Source of the DNA: Escherichia phage vB_EcoS_swan01
Sequence record: NC_048202.1
Reading direction: 5' to 3' (one strand)
DNA: 50,865 bases
Part shown: positions 1 to 50,865 of the stretch, in pieces
How positions within the stretch are numbered: position 1 is the first letter of the stretch
Layout of the letters: each line of letters opens with the position of its first letter
Program-made: the position numbers and the translations under genes
Notes under the pieces: model-generated
What the model was told of the DNA's origin: nothing
Seen by the model: the letters and a program-made list of their open reading frames with translations, nothing else
Database searches by the model: none

Positions 1-127
1 CAAAAAGCATCAACCTTGCCCACACTGCGGCGGTAAGGATCGTTTTAGATGGACTGATAAGCTAAATGAAGAGGGCGACGGCGGCGCGATCTGCAACGTG
101 TGCGGCAACGACACGGGGATCGGTTGG
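1..127. repeat. terminal direct repeat, identical to 50739..50865
   Basis: exact 127-bp duplication of window start and end. Confidence 0.9.
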
Positions 128-817
128 TTAATGAAATTAACTGGCGAACCTTACAGCGAGGCCATCAACATTTTGGGCCGCTTCCTCGGAAAAGTGCCAC
201 AAGATTACAGGATCAGAGCAAACAAACGCGCTTCGCGTTCTTCTGGTTACTCGTTCGGGAAACAGGCAAGTCATGAATGTTGCGAAAAAGTGATGGAAAA
301 AACATTAAAATTCGATCGCACACCTTTAAGCGTTTATGAGGGGATATATCCGCCGGAAGATTGTCATTATGATTGCGGCGTCAAGGATGGTCGATACATT
401 CACGCGCTACCTTGTCACCTGGTGCATGATGACGGGCTGGATGATGAAATGTGTAACGTGCTTTTCATTGATGAGGATGGAAAGGATTGGTTTTTAGCTC
501 GCGACTACACGCGCGGATCTGTTGTTAAAACAGGTAGTACAGATAAGACGATCTATTTGTGCCTTGATTGGGTTGATTCTCAGCATGTTCATTTATCAAC
601 TGGTCAAGAGGTGTGGGCCTGTTTTACTCCTTCAAATCTTGAAATGGTTGCGCATAGATATAAAGGAGAAAGAAGAATGCGCGTAGTCTGCCGGAAAGAT
701 GATCGTGATGTGATAATCGCGGCAGAGGAAAGAGGGCTTGACATAATGATGCCTGTTAACGATAATTTTAAACAGGGAGTAGAAAGAAAACTCTACAAGC
801 CCGAATCACTGCTATAA
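2..817 (+). CDS. primase-like protein, C-terminal part (continues from 50626..50865 across the terminal duplication)
   Basis: Frame is continuous with the ORF starting at ATG 50626 when 1-127 is superimposed on 50739-50865; N-terminus carries a CPHCGG...CNVCGN zinc-ribbon typical of primase Zn-binding domains; followed by hairpin plus T-run terminator. Confidence 0.6.
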   Translation, partial: KKHQPCPHCGGKDRFRWTDKLNEEGDGGAICNVCGNDTGIGWLMKLTGEPYSEAINILGRFLGKVPQDYRIRANKRASRSSGYSFGKQASHECCEKVMEKTLKFDRTPLSVYEGIYPPEDCHYDCGVKDGRYIHALPCHLVHDDGLDDEMCNVLFIDEDGKDWFLARDYTRGSVVKTGSTDKTIYLCLDWVDSQHVHLSTGQEVWACFTPSNLEMVAHRYKGERRMRVVCRKDDRDVIIAAEERGLDIMMPVNDNFKQGVERKLYKPESLL

Positions 818-5385: not shown

Positions 5386-6441
5386 TTATAGATACTGCCT
5401 GAATTGAGCGCGTACCCAATCAGGAGTATCAAGATCAATTTCCGGTTGCCCGTTTGCATACGAAGGCCATTCGTCTAACTGCTGGCAAACGTTGAACTTG
5501 TTGATCACGCTCATGTACTGGATTCGCCCGATCTTCAATTGCTCAATATTCATTCGGAAAGCAAGCGGCAAGTAAGGCTCTTTCTTCTCCTGCGCAAGCA
5601 ATCTTACAATTACTGGCCTTTCCTCGTCTGGATACGCCTTTTTGAATAAGTCATGTTGCAAAGCCATTTTAAGATAATAGCCGTGATTGTAAGCCAGGCG
5701 CTGGAAGTCAACCGGATTTGCGCTAACCGTTGTTTTGTAGTCAGTGATAATCACCGCTTCTGGATAGGTTACTTCTTCATAAATCGGCCTGCCTTTTTCG
5801 TCGTAACCGTTAATGATTGTTGCCTTTACATCCTTGTTTACGTCAACGTGATCAAGACGCACTTTTACTTTTACGCCGTTGATGATCCCAAATATTGACA
5901 TTTCACGCTGCGCGGTTGGGCTGTTCATGCAAGCGTTATGCTCCGGTATGGCCTCAAGTACGCGCCGCATCGCTACACAGGCATCATAATCTTTAGCGTC
6001 TATTAACTGCACTCCGTCCGCTGCGGCCTGGCATTCTGCCATCATTTCGATAAGCCACCACACATTGAGATCCTCGCCGCACTTGTACAGCATTTCCAGT
6101 AATTCAGGGTATTGTTTACCCGTTGTACCTTTCAGGCCAAAAGATTTCAGCTTTGATGCTAACGCCGTTTGACTAGTGATCAGGTCTTTAAAATCATCCT
6201 GCGACGGTGCGCGGCGATATGTTTTTTCGAATAGCTCCTTGCTTTCAAAGTTGGTATGCGACTGCGTACCGAAAACAAGTGCTTTAGTTTCCTGGCGCGG
6301 CTTGTACTTCCAGTACGCCGGGCAAGTGCTGTAAATCTCAGCTAGGCTGGAACCGCTGACATATTCAGCCGTCCACGCGTTAGGATCATGATAAAGCTCG
6401 TTGCTCATTTCTTCGCTAGTGTAGGCGTTAAAATCACTCAT
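5386..6441 (-). CDS. recombination exonuclease (PD-(D/E)XK-type)
   Basis: 351-aa ORF with D...DYK nuclease-like motif (VIITDYKTT); first gene of the leftward recombination operon. Confidence 0.55.
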   Translation of the reverse strand: MSDFNAYTSEEMSNELYHDPNAWTAEYVSGSSLAEIYSTCPAYWKYKPRQETKALVFGTQSHTNFESKELFEKTYRRAPSQDDFKDLITSQTALASKLKSFGLKGTTGKQYPELLEMLYKCGEDLNVWWLIEMMAECQAAADGVQLIDAKDYDACVAMRRVLEAIPEHNACMNSPTAQREMSIFGIINGVKVKVRLDHVDVNKDVKATIINGYDEKGRPIYEEVTYPEAVIITDYKTTVSANPVDFQRLAYNHGYYLKMALQHDLFKKAYPDEERPVIVRLLAQEKKEPYLPLAFRMNIEQLKIGRIQYMSVINKFNVCQQLDEWPSYANGQPEIDLDTPDWVRAQFRQYL

Positions 6442-6471
6442 CTTTAATGCTCCTTGTTGCTTTATGCGTGC

Positions 6472-6499
6472 ATTGTAGCCATTTGGTTGATTTAGTCAA
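6472..6499 (-). promoter_or_regulatory. sigma70-like promoter (TTGACT-N16-TACAAT) for the exonuclease/Erf/SSB operon
   Basis: near-consensus -35 and -10 hexamers read on the minus strand about 30 nt upstream of the exonuclease start. Confidence 0.5.
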
Positions 6500-6639
6500 T
6501 AGCTGTTTTGTTTTTTCTGTTTTCTAAACGTTCTCATATGGCAAGAAAACAGATTTGACTCATAAGTTAATGATTAATGTGTGTTATTTTTCTTGTTCCC
6601 ATGTTCTCTCAGATACGCCGGATTATATACATACACATG

Positions 6640-6800
6640 AATGATGGCACATACAGATACTCAGAAAGAAAAATCACCACAAACAACCAAAACCACAAGA
6701 AACGCAGATAACAAGAAAAAACAAATATACATACATAAATAAATAAACTATTGATTTTATATGTATATATCTATTTTATTGATTGTTTATTGATCTTATG
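6640..6800. repeat. AT/CA-rich intergenic element, related to the one at ~36790-36960
   Basis: shared strings such as cacaaacaacc...aacaa(a)aag and ataaataaataa; TTATTGAT repeats; sits in a ~500-bp non-coding strand-switch region. Confidence 0.5.
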
Positions 6801-6866
6801 TTGTCTAAATTTTGCGCTAAATTTACGCCGTCTTAAATTCGATAACACCGGAAAACAAAAAATAAC

Positions 6867-6911
6867 AAATAGCACTTTTTGCTAAACGCGATGCCCAAGA
6901 TCGTGTATAGT
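6867..6911 (+). promoter_or_regulatory. motif promoter-like element (AAATAGCACTTTTTGCTAAA, ~21 nt spacer, TATAGT)
   Basis: conserved motif plus -10-like hexamer about 30 nt upstream of the lipoprotein gene ATG. Confidence 0.55.
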
Positions 6912-6942
6912 TGCATCCAACAACAACTAAGGAGTATTGAAG

Positions 6943-17646: not shown

Positions 17647-17692
17647 TTATAGCACTTTTTGTTAAAAGTGGAATTAATTTATTTGATAGATT
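17647..17692 (+). promoter_or_regulatory. motif copy inverted relative to the late genes (TATAGCACTTTTTGTTAAAA, 22 nt, TAGATT)
   Basis: conserved motif with a -10-like hexamer at canonical spacing, but pointing antisense to the tail genes; in gene sense the motif directly abuts the AAGGAG RBS of the G gene. Confidence 0.45.
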
Positions 17693-36620: not shown

Positions 36621-36649
36621 ATTATAAAAGCTATTTGGTGCGTGTCAAT
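36621..36649 (-). promoter_or_regulatory. consensus sigma70 promoter (TTGACA-N17-TATAAT)
   Basis: perfect -35 and -10 hexamers with 17-bp spacer read on the minus strand, upstream of gene 36125..36589. Confidence 0.65.
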
Positions 36650-36789
36650 GTTTTTGTTGTATTCAAAACGTTACCAATATCGAAAAACTACAAAATCATG
36701 CGCAAGTTATTGATTTCAGGGCTGTTATTTTTCTGTTCACGCTGTTAACGCAATCCGCCGGAAAAAGTATATATACATATGCAATCCGC

Positions 36790-36960
36790 CGCGCGCGCAA
36801 CTATCCATATATACCCACACACAACCACACCATAACCAACAAAAAGCACTGTAACAGTGAGAACAAAAAGAAAACATTATAGATATATATAAATAAATAA
36901 TCTTTATTTTCAATGTATTATAGAGGGATTTTTTTGTTTTTTTCGTTTTCGCTACACCGG
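36790..36960. repeat. AT/CA-rich intergenic element, related to the one at ~6640-6800
   Basis: shared strings ccacacacaaccacacc...aacaaaaag and ataaataaataa; direct repeat gcaatccgccg x2; inside a 660-bp non-coding region. Confidence 0.5.
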
Positions 36961-37083
36961 AAAACCGCGCGGAAACACGCCGCCTGAAATCGGTAACAGG
37001 GGTGAACAAAAGACAACAACCGCTGACAGCCAGGCGGAAAAGTGAGGCAAGAGGGGAAGGTTTCACTATCTCCCCTGCAACCA

Positions 37084-37180
37084 ATGATTAAACGTGATTA
37101 CTTTTCTCATCAAATTTGCAAAGGCAATCATCATTTTGACGTGATTTGATTACGAATGATTACTTTTGATTATTTCGATC
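37084..37180. repeat. iteron-like direct and inverted repeats of ATGATT/TGATTAC
   Basis: at least 5 copies of (A)TGATTAC(TTTT) within ~100 bp just upstream of the first rightward motif promoter. Confidence 0.5.
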
Positions 37181-37201
37181 ACAATCCTGGTGCTAACCGT
37201 C

Positions 37202-37247
37202 AAATAGCACTTTTTGTTAAAAATCAGGCCGCCTGATCGGGTACATT
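37202..37247 (+). promoter_or_regulatory. motif promoter-like element (AAATAGCACTTTTTGTTAAAA, 22 nt, TACATT)
   Basis: first promoter of the rightward small-gene block; leader CATCGAAACGAACC precedes the RBS. Confidence 0.6.
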
Positions 37248-37282
37248 ACACACATCGAAACGAACCGCTCAGGAGATAGTAA

Positions 37283-41171: not shown

Positions 41172-42752
41172 ATGTTTTCATTAGAAACGAACAAATTAAC
41201 TCCACAACAAATAATCGCTATGGCTGAAAGCCAGAACCTCTCACCAGTTCGCGTATCAATTCAGGCTAACGGCTATCGCCAGTCGTCCAGCTTTTGGGGC
41301 GACGTAAAGGATGTGAATAGCGGTCACGATCGCTACCCCGTTATTTCTCTTGGTAATGATATTGATGTTGTCGGCAAGTTATCACGCAGCATTGCGCGAT
41401 CCGTTCAATTCCCTGAATCATCGGCTTACATGCACTTTATCGGCTGCATTTCTGCCGCTATGCTTGGACGCTTTACGGTTGACTATCACGGAACCGATCA
41501 GCCGACTGCGCTTTACGTCGTTACAAGCCAGCCGCCGTCAACTGGTAAATCTGCGATCAACAGCATGGCTATTGCTCCGATGATTGCGGAAGTTGAGAAG
41601 ATCAACGAGCAACGCCGCAAGGAAAGAAAGAAAATACAGGCAAAGCTGGCAGGTCTTGCAAAGGAGATGAAAAGCGAAAGATCCGGCGCTGATATGGAAT
41701 CTCTATACCAGGAAAAAGAGGATCTGGAGGAAAAGCTGGAAAAAATGTGTGATATAACTTTTCCTGTTTCAGATACAACTCCAGAAGGCTTGGCGAAAAT
41801 CAACAACAAGCAAGGTAACTTTGCCGTAATATCTGATGAAGCAACAAGTATTAACAGTCTGTTAGGCTTGACCTATGCAAATAGCGAAAGGAAGACTAAC
41901 AGTGAGTTAGTGCTTAAGGCGTGGGATAATGGTCACGTATCAATTGCCCGTGCTAATGCTGACAATAATATGAGTTTTCGCGCGCTTGGATGTATGAGCG
42001 TCATAGCCCAGGATGAAACGATAAGCGGAATCATGGACGCTGGATCGCGAGGCATCGGTGTTAGTGAGCGTTTTTTGTTGGTCCGCGAGGAATCATTCTT
42101 AGGCCGTCGCTCATTCATTGATGAAAATGGTGATTCTACCTATGAGGCGGTGGATTCTGAATTGAAAGCCCAATATTATCAATTGGTGCATAACATCATG
42201 AGCGAATCAAATATATCGCTGAAAATAAGCCGTTCAGCTATGCGAGTGCTCAACATTGCTCGCCAGGATATGGAACCGCATCTTGCAGACGGAGGAAAGT
42301 ATTCTCATACAATGTTACGCGGTGCGCTGGGTAAAATGGATAAACAGGTGATCAGGCTTGCTTCCGTCCTGCATGTTATCCGTAACTGGTTTAATCCTGC
42401 CGGATACCCGCAGAAGTCGAAAGAGATCGACGTGGAAACAATGCAAGAGGCGTTGATCATGTTTCAGGAATTGAGCAAAACATACATTAGCGCCGCCAAT
42501 GCTTCTGGTTATGCTGGTGATGATGCTGAAATGGGTAAATTGATTGAATTGATCACGAGGCACGGCAAGGCTAATAAAGGGATTCTGAATATCCGCGCCC
42601 TGTACGAATCAGCGAGAAAGGTAAAACCTTTCGTTGGTCAGGCTGGCGTAATGAAAAGGATAGAAGGGCACTTACTGCCAATGCTGGAAGAAAGAAATTA
42701 TGTTTGTGTGATTAATGGTGTTATTTTTGTCAATCCAATACTGCTGGGATGA
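41172..42752 (+). CDS. P-loop NTPase, replication-associated (putative)
   Basis: 526 aa; Walker A-like SQPPSTGKSA; no further family assignment possible by eye. Confidence 0.5.
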   Translation: MFSLETNKLTPQQIIAMAESQNLSPVRVSIQANGYRQSSSFWGDVKDVNSGHDRYPVISLGNDIDVVGKLSRSIARSVQFPESSAYMHFIGCISAAMLGRFTVDYHGTDQPTALYVVTSQPPSTGKSAINSMAIAPMIAEVEKINEQRRKERKKIQAKLAGLAKEMKSERSGADMESLYQEKEDLEEKLEKMCDITFPVSDTTPEGLAKINNKQGNFAVISDEATSINSLLGLTYANSERKTNSELVLKAWDNGHVSIARANADNNMSFRALGCMSVIAQDETISGIMDAGSRGIGVSERFLLVREESFLGRRSFIDENGDSTYEAVDSELKAQYYQLVHNIMSESNISLKISRSAMRVLNIARQDMEPHLADGGKYSHTMLRGALGKMDKQVIRLASVLHVIRNWFNPAGYPQKSKEIDVETMQEALIMFQELSKTYISAANASGYAGDDAEMGKLIELITRHGKANKGILNIRALYESARKVKPFVGQAGVMKRIEGHLLPMLEERNYVCVINGVIFVNPILLG

Positions 42753-50093: not shown

Positions 50094-50570
50094 ATGAAAG
50101 ATGCACGAATTGCAGTATCTACGGGTGAGATCGACAAGCGCACTATTAACGGTAACAACGGAACGCGACGAGGTAAAGACAAAAAACCACGAAAACACCG
50201 AACCGGATTTCTTATCCTGCGAGATGAGGTAAAAGCAAGCCTGAAATCTCGCCTTGACATTCTGATCGAGTATTACGGCGGCGTTCCTGCTATGGCTCGA
50301 CGTCTGCGCGTATCTCAGCAAGTCGTTAACCAGTGGCGAAAGCGTGGTATGATTTCAGCCGCTGGAGCACAAAAGGTGCATAACGACTACAAATATAATG
50401 GATGCAAAGGATACCGCGCATCATTTTGTCGTCCAGATCTGCGGTTTGATTCTAACGGTAAGCCTCTTACTACCCGTTGCGACAAATACGATATGTTGCG
50501 CGTAGTCAAAAATTCAGACTACGAACCAGGCGGACGATTCTACAAAGGTGATAACAGCACGAATAGCTAA
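50094..50570 (+). CDS. HTH DNA-binding protein (Cro/YdaS-like, putative transcriptional regulator)
   Basis: GGVPAMARRLRVSQQVVNQWRKRG helix-turn-helix segment; basic N-terminus; followed by a terminator. Confidence 0.55.
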   Translation: MKDARIAVSTGEIDKRTINGNNGTRRGKDKKPRKHRTGFLILRDEVKASLKSRLDILIEYYGGVPAMARRLRVSQQVVNQWRKRGMISAAGAQKVHNDYKYNGCKGYRASFCRPDLRFDSNGKPLTTRCDKYDMLRVVKNSDYEPGGRFYKGDNSTNS

Positions 50571-50577
50571 TGATAAG

Positions 50578-50613
50578 GCCCAGCGAAATGATAATATTTG
50601 CTGGGCTTTTTTA
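50578..50613 (+). terminator. rho-independent terminator (large loop)
   Basis: gcccagc...gctgggc inverted repeat followed by T6. Confidence 0.5.
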
Positions 50614-50625
50614 TTGAGGTTTGCC

Positions 50626-50865
50626 ATGAATACTGAAAACTTTATGACCTATCAGAAAGAAGATGTTTTGCCATATATGAAGGGGTTATGGCGTGAAGCA
50701 CTACAAAGCATTTGCGGACTGCATAGCGATGTTTTCAACAAAAAGCATCAACCTTGCCCACACTGCGGCGGTAAGGATCGTTTTAGATGGACTGATAAGC
50801 TAAATGAAGAGGGCGACGGCGGCGCGATCTGCAACGTGTGCGGCAACGACACGGGGATCGGTTGG
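50626..50865 (+). CDS. primase-like protein, N-terminal part (continues at 2..817 across the terminal duplication)
   Basis: ATG at 50626; zinc-ribbon CPHCGGKDRFRW...CNVCGNDTGIGW; ORF runs off the window end into the 127-bp duplicated segment. Confidence 0.6.
   Translation, partial: MNTENFMTYQKEDVLPYMKGLWREALQSICGLHSDVFNKKHQPCPHCGGKDRFRWTDKLNEEGDGGAICNVCGNDTGIGW
50739..50865. repeat. terminal direct repeat, identical to 1..127
   Basis: exact 127-bp duplication of window start and end. Confidence 0.9.

Follow-up and report, generated by a model that had tools for sequence, protein, structure and literature searches.

The Bacillus phage SPP1, a virulent siphophage, carries two related origins, oriL and oriR, that lie far apart and each place initiator-binding repeats beside an AT-rich region. 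In the annotated GenBank record of phage P4, from which we took the P4 iteron, the 'ori type 1 repeats' (TGTTCACC) number 16 copies split between ori and crr; these copies are grouped as tandem pairs with a spacing of 9-11 bp, face either way, and surround AT-rich DNA, and ori itself occupies an intergenic region (IGR) with divergent promoters. Origins of phage-inducible chromosomal islands (PICIs) and Staphylococcus aureus pathogenicity islands (SaPIs), known as Pri-Rep, have two iteron sets flanking an AT-rich presumed melting site, depend on a primase and a helicase-type initiator, and contain allele-specific iterons (PMC6092414). For T1-like phages, recent genome papers found no replication origin or iterons (PMC11447400, PMC7718038), and the literature that could be searched held no description of a paired element or of any T1-like phage origin; a literature search for the string TGTTCACC returned unrelated primer sequences only. 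Here we describe two intergenic elements, A (approximately 6500-6870) and B (approximately 36650-37020), of Escherichia phage vB_EcoS_swan01 (NC_048202.1), whose 50,865-nt sequence, referred to here as the window, is a complete T1-like siphophage genome (Drexlerviridae, Tempevirinae, Warwickvirus). Our sequence analysis suggests that A and B are, on balance, probably two ancient paralogous iteron-type replication-origin modules, i.e., origin-type cis replication regions. Iteron origins with a DNA-unwinding element are a known kind, of which the paired element in T1-like phages would be a new member.

The elements lie in the following IGRs:
6442-6942: region A, between the leftward exoVIII-Erf-SSB operon and the rightward Cor-like lipoprotein gene
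36623-37282: region B, between the long leftward early-to-terminase-to-structural unit and the rightward early operon

We found that the two IGRs share a collinear element of approximately 290 nt (A 6581-6869, B 36718-37021), which confirms the relationship proposed in the first-pass annotation. Local alignment of 6442-6942 with 36623-37282 paired A 6508-6788 collinearly with B 36648-36943 at a score of 92, while 500 dinucleotide-preserving shuffles scored 22.9 ± 2.8 (maximum 39) and none reached 92; in reverse orientation the two regions aligned with a score of 48. That two AT-rich spacers resemble each other by chance is an explanation to which we give practically no credence. Both regions are indeed AT-rich, but the alignment score lies approximately 24 standard deviations above the shuffles, both copies are conserved across genera, and profiles built from one element detect the other. 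An nhmmer profile of A-type elements from other genomes matched window B at 36723-37018 over the whole model (E=1e-34), a B-only profile matched window A at 6588-6868 over its full length (E=2e-29), and neither profile matched anything else in approximately 250 kb of complete genomes. The shuffle test and the reciprocal profiles thus refute chance resemblance.

A joint nhmmer profile of six Tempevirinae elements detected element A at E=1e-51 and element B at E=8e-63, and it gave exactly two matches in each complete Tempevirinae genome. Among IMG/VR loci anchored on exoVIII or on the helicase gene, 50 of 88 gave one match, at the expected position, and those that gave none belong mostly to other subfamilies, e.g., T1-like Tunavirinae. 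Overall, all examined Drexlerviridae keep both elements. Our alignment first took both elements of this phage, TLS, and Stevie and then 34 non-redundant elements (21 A-type, 13 B-type); its columns are best conserved at the TGTT/AACA and ATATATA...TAA cores and at the CGCCG motifs, and the sequence between these drifts. The motifs quoted in the first-pass annotation proved to be real, since ATAAATAAATAA and TATATACAT are present in both regions and nearly confined to them, with 3/3 genomic copies of TATATACAT in the two regions. One A-type element (L095 2758-3232, contig IMGVR_UViG_2974632794) is 475 nt long, approximately 190 nt longer than the approximately 285 nt found elsewhere, which suggests an insertion inside the element.

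From left to right, the general order of the element is a leftward sigma70 promoter; T-rich DNA with forward TGTT boxes followed by a core resembling the site of integration host factor (IHF), TAAGT-N3-TGAT (reverse complement ATCA-N5-TTR); two or three forward boxes, TGTTCAC-like; ACGCCGGA and then TATATACATA; a CA-rich tract that is a block of reverse boxes (AACA cores); an 80-bp core with 85-86% A+T and weak dyad symmetry; forward boxes (TTTGTTCTTTTTGTT); TACGCCG; and two or three reverse boxes (GTGAACA..GGAACAAAA). These features have the following positions in the window:
6472..6499, minus strand: leftward sigma70-type promoter TTGACT-16-TACAAT, 10/12 consensus, which heads the exoVIII-Erf-SSB operon and abuts A
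6500..6580: left extension of A, with forward TGTT at 6504, 6509, and 6518 and one reverse AACA at 6548
6564-6576: IHF-like core TAAGTTAATGATT in the left extension of A
6581..6869: element A core, bounds from the profile
6582, 6594, and 6602: forward TGTT boxes of A (TGTTCCC, TGTTCTC)
6615-6622: A motif ACGCCGGA
6624-6636: A motif TATATACATAC
6682, 6710, and 6720: reverse AACA boxes in the CA-rich tract of A
6719..6798: AT core of A, candidate DNA-unwinding element, 86% A+T (genome 55%), least stable 80-bp segment (z=4.9)
6784 and 6799: forward TGTT right of the AT core of A
6824-6830: TACGCCG of A
6844, 6854, and 6864: reverse AACA at the right of A
36621..36648, minus strand: leftward sigma70 promoter TTGACA-16-TATAAT, 12/12 consensus, which heads the long leftward early-to-structural unit and abuts B
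36649..36717: left extension of B, with forward TGTT at 36649 and 36655
36703-36715, minus strand: exact IHF consensus AATCAATAACTTG in the left extension of B
36718..37021: element B core
36723, 36734, and 36743: TGTT of the B forward boxes CTGTTATT, CTGTTCACG, and CTGTTAACG
36755-36762: B motif CCGCCGGA
36768-36780: B motif TATATATACATAT
36838, 36853, 36862, and 36873: reverse AACA in the CA-rich tract of B
36864..36943: AT core of B, candidate DNA-unwinding element, 85% A+T, second least stable 80-bp segment (z=4.5)
36935: forward TGTT right of the AT core of B
36957-36983: CCGG/CGCGG/ACGCCG motifs of B
36995, 37005, and 37015: AACA of the B reverse boxes GGTAACA, GTGAACA, and GACAACA

We found that TGTT and AACA cores are strictly segregated in the window into blocks of alternating orientation, within which neighbouring boxes are 8-12 bp apart (mean approximately 10), and that box density reaches 4.0 and 3.75 per 100 nt in the two regions against 1.14 genome-wide, i.e., 3.3-3.5 times as much. 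Motifs that contain CGCCGG occupy the centres of the blocks. Since the box blocks alternate in orientation, the whole element is a pseudo-palindrome of approximately 300-370 bp, which explains the reverse-orientation matches. Describing the regions as AT/CA-rich, as the first-pass annotation did, was correct for A+T (G+C is 32% and 39% in the two regions and 45% in the genome) but missed this organisation, in which the CA-rich tract consists of reverse AACA boxes. Of the host-factor sites proposed there, IHF-like cores are present at 6564-6576, 6744-6756, and 36703-36715 and recur in relatives (L006, L007, and IMG/VR loci); most of the 34 non-redundant elements have TAAGT-N3-TGAT at a distance of 15-25 nt from the left-hand box block, on its left side, and 2/5 genomic copies of exact WATCAANNNNTTR matches are in the two IGRs. 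Neither region contains a DnaA box (TTWTNCACA), so that neither resembles an oriC-like origin in this respect, and GATC sites are not clustered, with 2 sites per region, below expectation. The reverse-box block of B also contains a 13-nt perfect palindrome, CACTGTAACAGTG (36847-36859), which carries the T1-type box TGTAACA/TGTTACA and was flagged by a terminator scan on the minus strand, where it is followed by CTTTTTGTTG.

We calculated nearest-neighbour duplex stability genome-wide in 40- and 80-bp windows for this phage, T1, TLS, Stevie, and Pantoea phage AAS23, which represent four genera. In 5/5 complete genomes the A and B cores are the two least stable duplex segments, with z-scores of 4.3-6.3 (6.3 and 5.5 in T1, 6.2 and 4.7 in AAS23), while the next segment has z<=3.6 in 4/5 genomes, including this phage (z=3.6); in AAS23 the third-ranked 80-bp segment (z=4.3) is likewise part of the A-equivalent IGR. 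At 40 bp, the present genome is least stable at 36883-36922 (z=4.4), inside the B core. The A core is an imperfect dyad with arms at 6710-6742 and 6755-6787 that are 73% complementary. A cruciform or hairpin in this dyad was considered and rejected, as single-strand folding did not outperform shuffled sequences (z = -0.5 to -1.4). Since single-strand folding of the dyad is not significant, easy melting rather than a stable cruciform is the conserved property.

The box words differ between the T1, L079, L041, L040 (AAS23), and L050 lineages while the architecture is the same. In T1-like phages the boxes read GTTACAC, and an unbiased k-mer scan of T1 placed 6/6 genomic copies of TGTTACA inside its two IGRs (p=2.5e-10); TLS has 4/8 copies of GTGAACA in its two regions. 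All box copies of L079 read ATTACA, L041 keeps the order '<< [AT core] >> GCCCCGGAT <<' with TTGTCCCA as its box, and the boxes of L050 and L040 are ATCCTCCGTAAA and ATCTACCGCAAA, respectively. For a complete L041-type genome, Megablast against GenBank phages gave no match and scanning viral contigs for TTGTCCCAN{1,6}TGTCCC lacked specificity; box confinement was tested on the L040 lineage (AAS23) in its place. The 50 kb of the AAS23 record that was examined contains five copies of TCTACCGCAAA, four around the core of B and a fifth in the intergenic stretch upstream of exoVIII, and none elsewhere even with one mismatch allowed. In the window, TGTTCAC has 5 genomic copies, 2 of them in B (36734 on the plus strand and 37002 on the minus strand), and the same word occurs in TLS and Stevie. 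Box words thus change in concert while the architecture is kept, which suggests that the boxes are bound by a phage-encoded protein evolving along with them. Lineage-wise change would not be expected of boxes read by a host factor, and with a constant layout it is the behaviour of iterons.

We favour replication origins for A and B because inverted sets of phased, lineage-specific iterons flank melting minima in a phage that encodes its own primase and replicative helicase. Both elements have three attributes of iteron origins, namely site-specific repeats at helical-turn spacing, an adjacent AT region of low stability, and repeats that vary between lineages. The first-pass annotation had offered a replication origin, a host-factor binding site, or a regulatory hub as shared functions; the anatomy fits a candidate origin best, and that interpretation as a whole finds partial support. 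Several points weigh against an origin. Origin activity and protein binding at A and B are both inferred, and the elements lie immediately upstream of strong promoters, where AT-rich DNA and operator-like repeats would also be expected of a transcription-control region. The A boxes in the window are degenerate (TGTTCCC, TGTTCTC), and exact-word enrichment there is modest (5/16 for TGTTCNC), the clean statistics being those of T1 and AAS23. Although the cumulative minimum of GC skew, a check proposed in the first-pass annotation, lies at 36-37 kb and coincides with B, skew follows the coding strand and is therefore unusable as an origin indicator.

In the strongest rival, A and B are transcription-control hubs with no role in replication initiation: the boxes would be operators for a phage regulator (e.g., the Cro-like helix-turn-helix (HTH) protein encoded at 50094-50570), the AT core would strengthen the early promoters on its flanks as a UP-element or as curved DNA, and two copies would coordinate the recombination operon with two early operons. 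We regard this as possible but rather unlikely. The promoters reported by the first-pass annotation exist, as both elements have a consensus or near-consensus sigma70 promoter on the left (10/12 at A, 12/12 at B) and a 21-nt motif on the right (6867-6886 and 37202-37221); the phage does encode a Cro-like HTH protein, and regulated promoters commonly contain IHF-like sites. A second leftward promoter-like site at 6650..6622 also overlaps the TATATA/CGCCGG part of A. Box-promoter distances, however, are not fixed: left boxes lie approximately 85-100 nt upstream of the -35 hexamer, and the gap between the right boxes and the 21-nt motif is nil in A and approximately 180 nt in B. Furthermore, the element is kept where a divergent promoter pair is lacking (TLS, AAS23), approximately ten phased boxes spread over 300 bp around global melting minima look like an origin rather than an operator, the melting minimum recurs in every genome examined, and the box matches the P4 replication iteron in a phage with the matching primase type. 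Origin and control-hub functions could coexist.

The second leftward promoter-like site reads GTGCCA-17-TATAAT (minus strand) and overlaps TATATACAT and the CGCCGG part of A; the equivalent place in B reads TATACT. If active, this site would direct transcription across the left boxes and on to exoVIII.

The motif on the right of both elements is the 21-nt repeat AAATAGCACTTTTTGYTAAA (ATAGCAC...TTGnTAAA), which is already published for TLS, T1, and Rtp with its function listed as an open question (PMC11447400). The window contains 18 copies against 0.04 expected, at 889, 6867, 17647, 21400, 26231, 30419, 31734, 33054, 34504, 35842, 37202, 38507, 40424, 41098, 43260, 46506, 47576, and 50065. Published TLS copies lie ahead of genes in the direction of transcription; the long leftward structural unit contains two plus-strand copies, at 17647 and 21400. 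Together with a repeat extension found at B alone, the copies beside the elements are as follows:
6867..6886, plus strand: exact 21-nt motif that precedes the Cor-like lipoprotein gene and borders A, outside the shared element
37060..37200: B-only TGATTA/AATCA repeat extension, probable pac region, outside the shared element
37202..37221, plus strand: 21-nt motif that precedes the rightward early operon (first gene 37283)

The extension at 37060-37200 contains 5 TGATTA against 0.15 expected and 7 AATCA against 0.73 expected, and these repeats are absent from A. In T1 and TLS, position 1 of the GenBank record, which is the restriction-mapped pac end, falls in the B-equivalent IGR inside AATCA/TGATTA repeats, 200-300 bp right of the shared element, and since the pac end falls in these equivalent repeats, 37060-37200 is the probable pac region. 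Region B would then be a composite of promoter, origin-like element, probable pac region, and 21-nt motif, and for this reason longer than region A. We consider it very improbable that the shared element is itself a terminase (pac) site or a hot spot for exoVIII/Erf recombination. T1 and TLS records opened at the pac end do begin inside the B-equivalent IGR, several assemblies begin or end near it, and A is directly upstream of the recombination genes; but the pac ends are outside the element in repeats that A does not have, headful packaging of the T1 type has one pac site as its starting point while the element is always present twice, and we found no recombination-specific anatomy.

A transcribed product, either a non-coding RNA or small peptide genes, is a shade less probable again. 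Pharokka-style annotations place open reading frames (ORFs) of 29-44 aa in both IGRs of some records, and the CA-rich tract would yield an unstructured RNA. No Rfam match reached the gathering threshold in the whole window, however, and at E values up to 1 the two regions gave two chance snoRNA-like matches; the single-strand folding result above and the pseudo-palindromic form of the element at the DNA level likewise tell against a transcript. We rejected the small ORFs as genes, since their strand, length, and presence are not conserved among relatives, and they are probably over-calls. In the deposited annotations of L001 (OR896819, 1756-2086) and L002 (1697-2150), three or four ORFs of 29-44 aa are placed inside both elements, in stretches that correspond to approximately 6555-6885 and 36696-37149 of the window.

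Returning to replication, candidate proteins for an origin at A and B are encoded in the window:
41172..42752, plus strand: DUF3987 replicative helicase (superfamily 6 (SF6), MCM-related), C-terminal winged helix at approximately aa 450-520
3' part 1..817 and 5' part approximately 50600-50865, plus strand: gene of a P4-alpha-type primase (Zn-ribbon and Toprim), an intact ORF once the 127-nt overlap is removed
50094..50570, plus strand: Cro/YdaS-like HTH protein beside the primase, alternative candidate for box binding

DUF3987 proteins are SF6 replicative helicases with a C-terminal winged HTH and are partnered with primases (PMC4889955, PMC11724360), and the window protein agrees with this description. 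The DUF3987 helicase is a candidate iteron-binding initiator. A fold search with its C-terminal domain yielded a winged helix of generic type, and the P4 origin-binding domain was not among the top 60; Pfam found no match in the N- and C-terminal 80-90 aa, and a PDB sequence search was uninformative. Its terminal domains diverge faster (mean identity 48% at the N terminus and 52% at the C terminus) than the core (66-71%), which fits our preferred reading but is weak evidence that these domains set specificity. The first approximately 45 residues, the fastest-diverging part (48% identity), form three short helices with an HTH-like consensus, LSPQQII..AE..G.SP..VA. A de novo 6-mer ranking per locus against the winged-helix sequence of the helicase was too noisy to tie box words to a particular protein. 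The primase matches P4 alpha residues 22-251 (phmmer E about 1e-12); only this primase domain matched, with no window ORF homologous to the SF3 helicase or the origin-binding domain of P4 alpha. The Cro/YdaS-like protein matches YdaS_toxin and P22_Cro in Pfam, both below the gathering score, has weak Cro-like matches in PDB (E=6e-4), and is a 'transcriptional regulator' in PHROG.

We propose that a phage initiator would occupy the phased boxes to the left and right of the core; the likeliest such protein is the DUF3987 helicase, acting through its C-terminal winged helix, with the Cro-like HTH protein as an alternative. Bending and oligomerisation would melt the AT core, possibly aided by IHF and by transcription from the adjacent strong sigma70 promoter, after which the helicase would load, the P4-alpha-type primase would lay primers, and the host polymerase would elongate. 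ExoVIII, Erf, and SSB, encoded directly downstream of A, would then support recombination-dependent concatemer formation. The two copies may be independent origins, as are SPP1 oriL and oriR, or a cooperating pair, as are P4 ori and crr. If B fires bidirectionally, both forks would, judging from the gene map, be co-directional with the long flanking operons. A more speculative idea, which we think quite unlikely though not as improbable as a pac site, is that A and B are an obligatory pair that the DUF3987 helicase-initiator must bind and join across 20-30 kb before replication fires; the common TGTTCAC iteron and alpha-type primase would then imply that the P4 satellite and T1-like modules go back to a single iteron/primase system whose helicase was replaced at a later stage (SF3 for SF6).

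The genes that border region A are:
5386-6441, minus strand: exoVIII gene
start 6943: Cor-like lipoprotein gene (PHROG match)

The first-pass annotation described the two IGRs as the only large non-coding stretches of the genome and tied them to strand switches. The former claim holds, as the largest interval lacking ORFs of >=60 aa is region A (485 nt) and region B is masked in a crude ORF scan solely by an unconserved 115-aa TTG ORF. The latter does not generalise, for the A-type element of TLS and Pantoea phage AAS23 sits between co-directional genes, so that the strand switch is incidental to the element. The rightward early operon beside B carries the DUF3987 helicase gene 4 kb downstream. 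Window positions 1-127 and 50739-50865 have the same sequence, a circularisation overlap left by the assembler (k=127), and the true circle is therefore 50,738 bp; on this 50.7-kb circle A and B are separated by 30.1 kb and 20.6 kb. Escherichia phage tinuso shares 99.6% identity with the window across region A, and region B carries no annotation in most related GenBank records. T1-like elements (70-80% identity or higher) also occur in approximately 7-18 unannotated GenBank 'Campylobacter phage' records (MG0656xx, 47-50 kb, host Campylobacter jejuni); since their sequences are those of Drexlerviridae, the host label looks doubtful. Records of 'Streptococcus phage MBBL140' and 'Pseudomonas phage Motto' matched too.

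T1 was among the founding T phages. Drexlerviridae are coliphages that are abundant, have been isolated many times, and are often to blame when fermentations fail. Our data provide two precise, family-wide candidate loci with defined boxes, an unwinding core, and candidate proteins, and where and how T1 starts replication has thus become directly testable. For annotation, it matters that several pipelines report spurious small ORFs within A and B, and for engineering, the A and B regions should not be taken as neutral insertion sites. The elements also bear on the evolution of primase/helicase/iteron modules common to virulent phages and satellites (P4, PICIs).

Among known systems, SPP1 differs in its initiator (G38P) and DnaB-type helicase system, and in having one origin inside the initiator gene, and it is not known to be related in sequence to A and B. 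Lambda-type and plasmid iteron origins likewise combine iterons with an AT-rich unwinding element, often with IHF assistance and transcriptional activation, but they place the iterons in one direct array, whereas the boxes here form inverted sets on both sides of the unwinding element, and neither DnaA boxes nor GATC clusters nor iterons within a replication gene are present (PMC11447400). PICI and SaPI origins are closer in having two iteron sets around an AT-rich presumed melting site together with a primase and a helicase-type initiator; they differ in that the PICI origin is single and immediately 3' of rep, whereas the present phage has two copies, 4 kb and approximately 34 kb from the helicase gene, and in that PICIs are satellites while the present genome is that of a virulent siphophage. 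The comparison with P4 is mixed. There is no sequence homology outside the iterons, and the element profile matches P4 iteron pairs at E about 1 only; the helicase here is a separate DUF3987/SF6 protein rather than the fused SF3 domain of P4 alpha, and the window has no detectable homologue of the alpha origin-binding domain. The elements here are also larger (approximately 300-370 bp) pseudo-palindromes with extra CGCCGG and TATATACAT motifs, and other Drexlerviridae lineages have unrelated box sequences. Nevertheless, the Tempevirinae box TGTTCAC(C) is identical to the core of the P4 type 1 repeat TGTTCACC, the 9-bp tandem spacing of P4 crr (CTGTTCACACTGTTCACC) is that of window B (CTGTTCACGCTGTTAACG), both genomes have tandem pairs facing either way around AT-rich DNA, P4 ori resembles A and B in lying between divergent promoters, both genomes carry two separate regions, which in the present phage are proposed to act in cis, and P4 alpha has a primase domain to which the phage primase is homologous.

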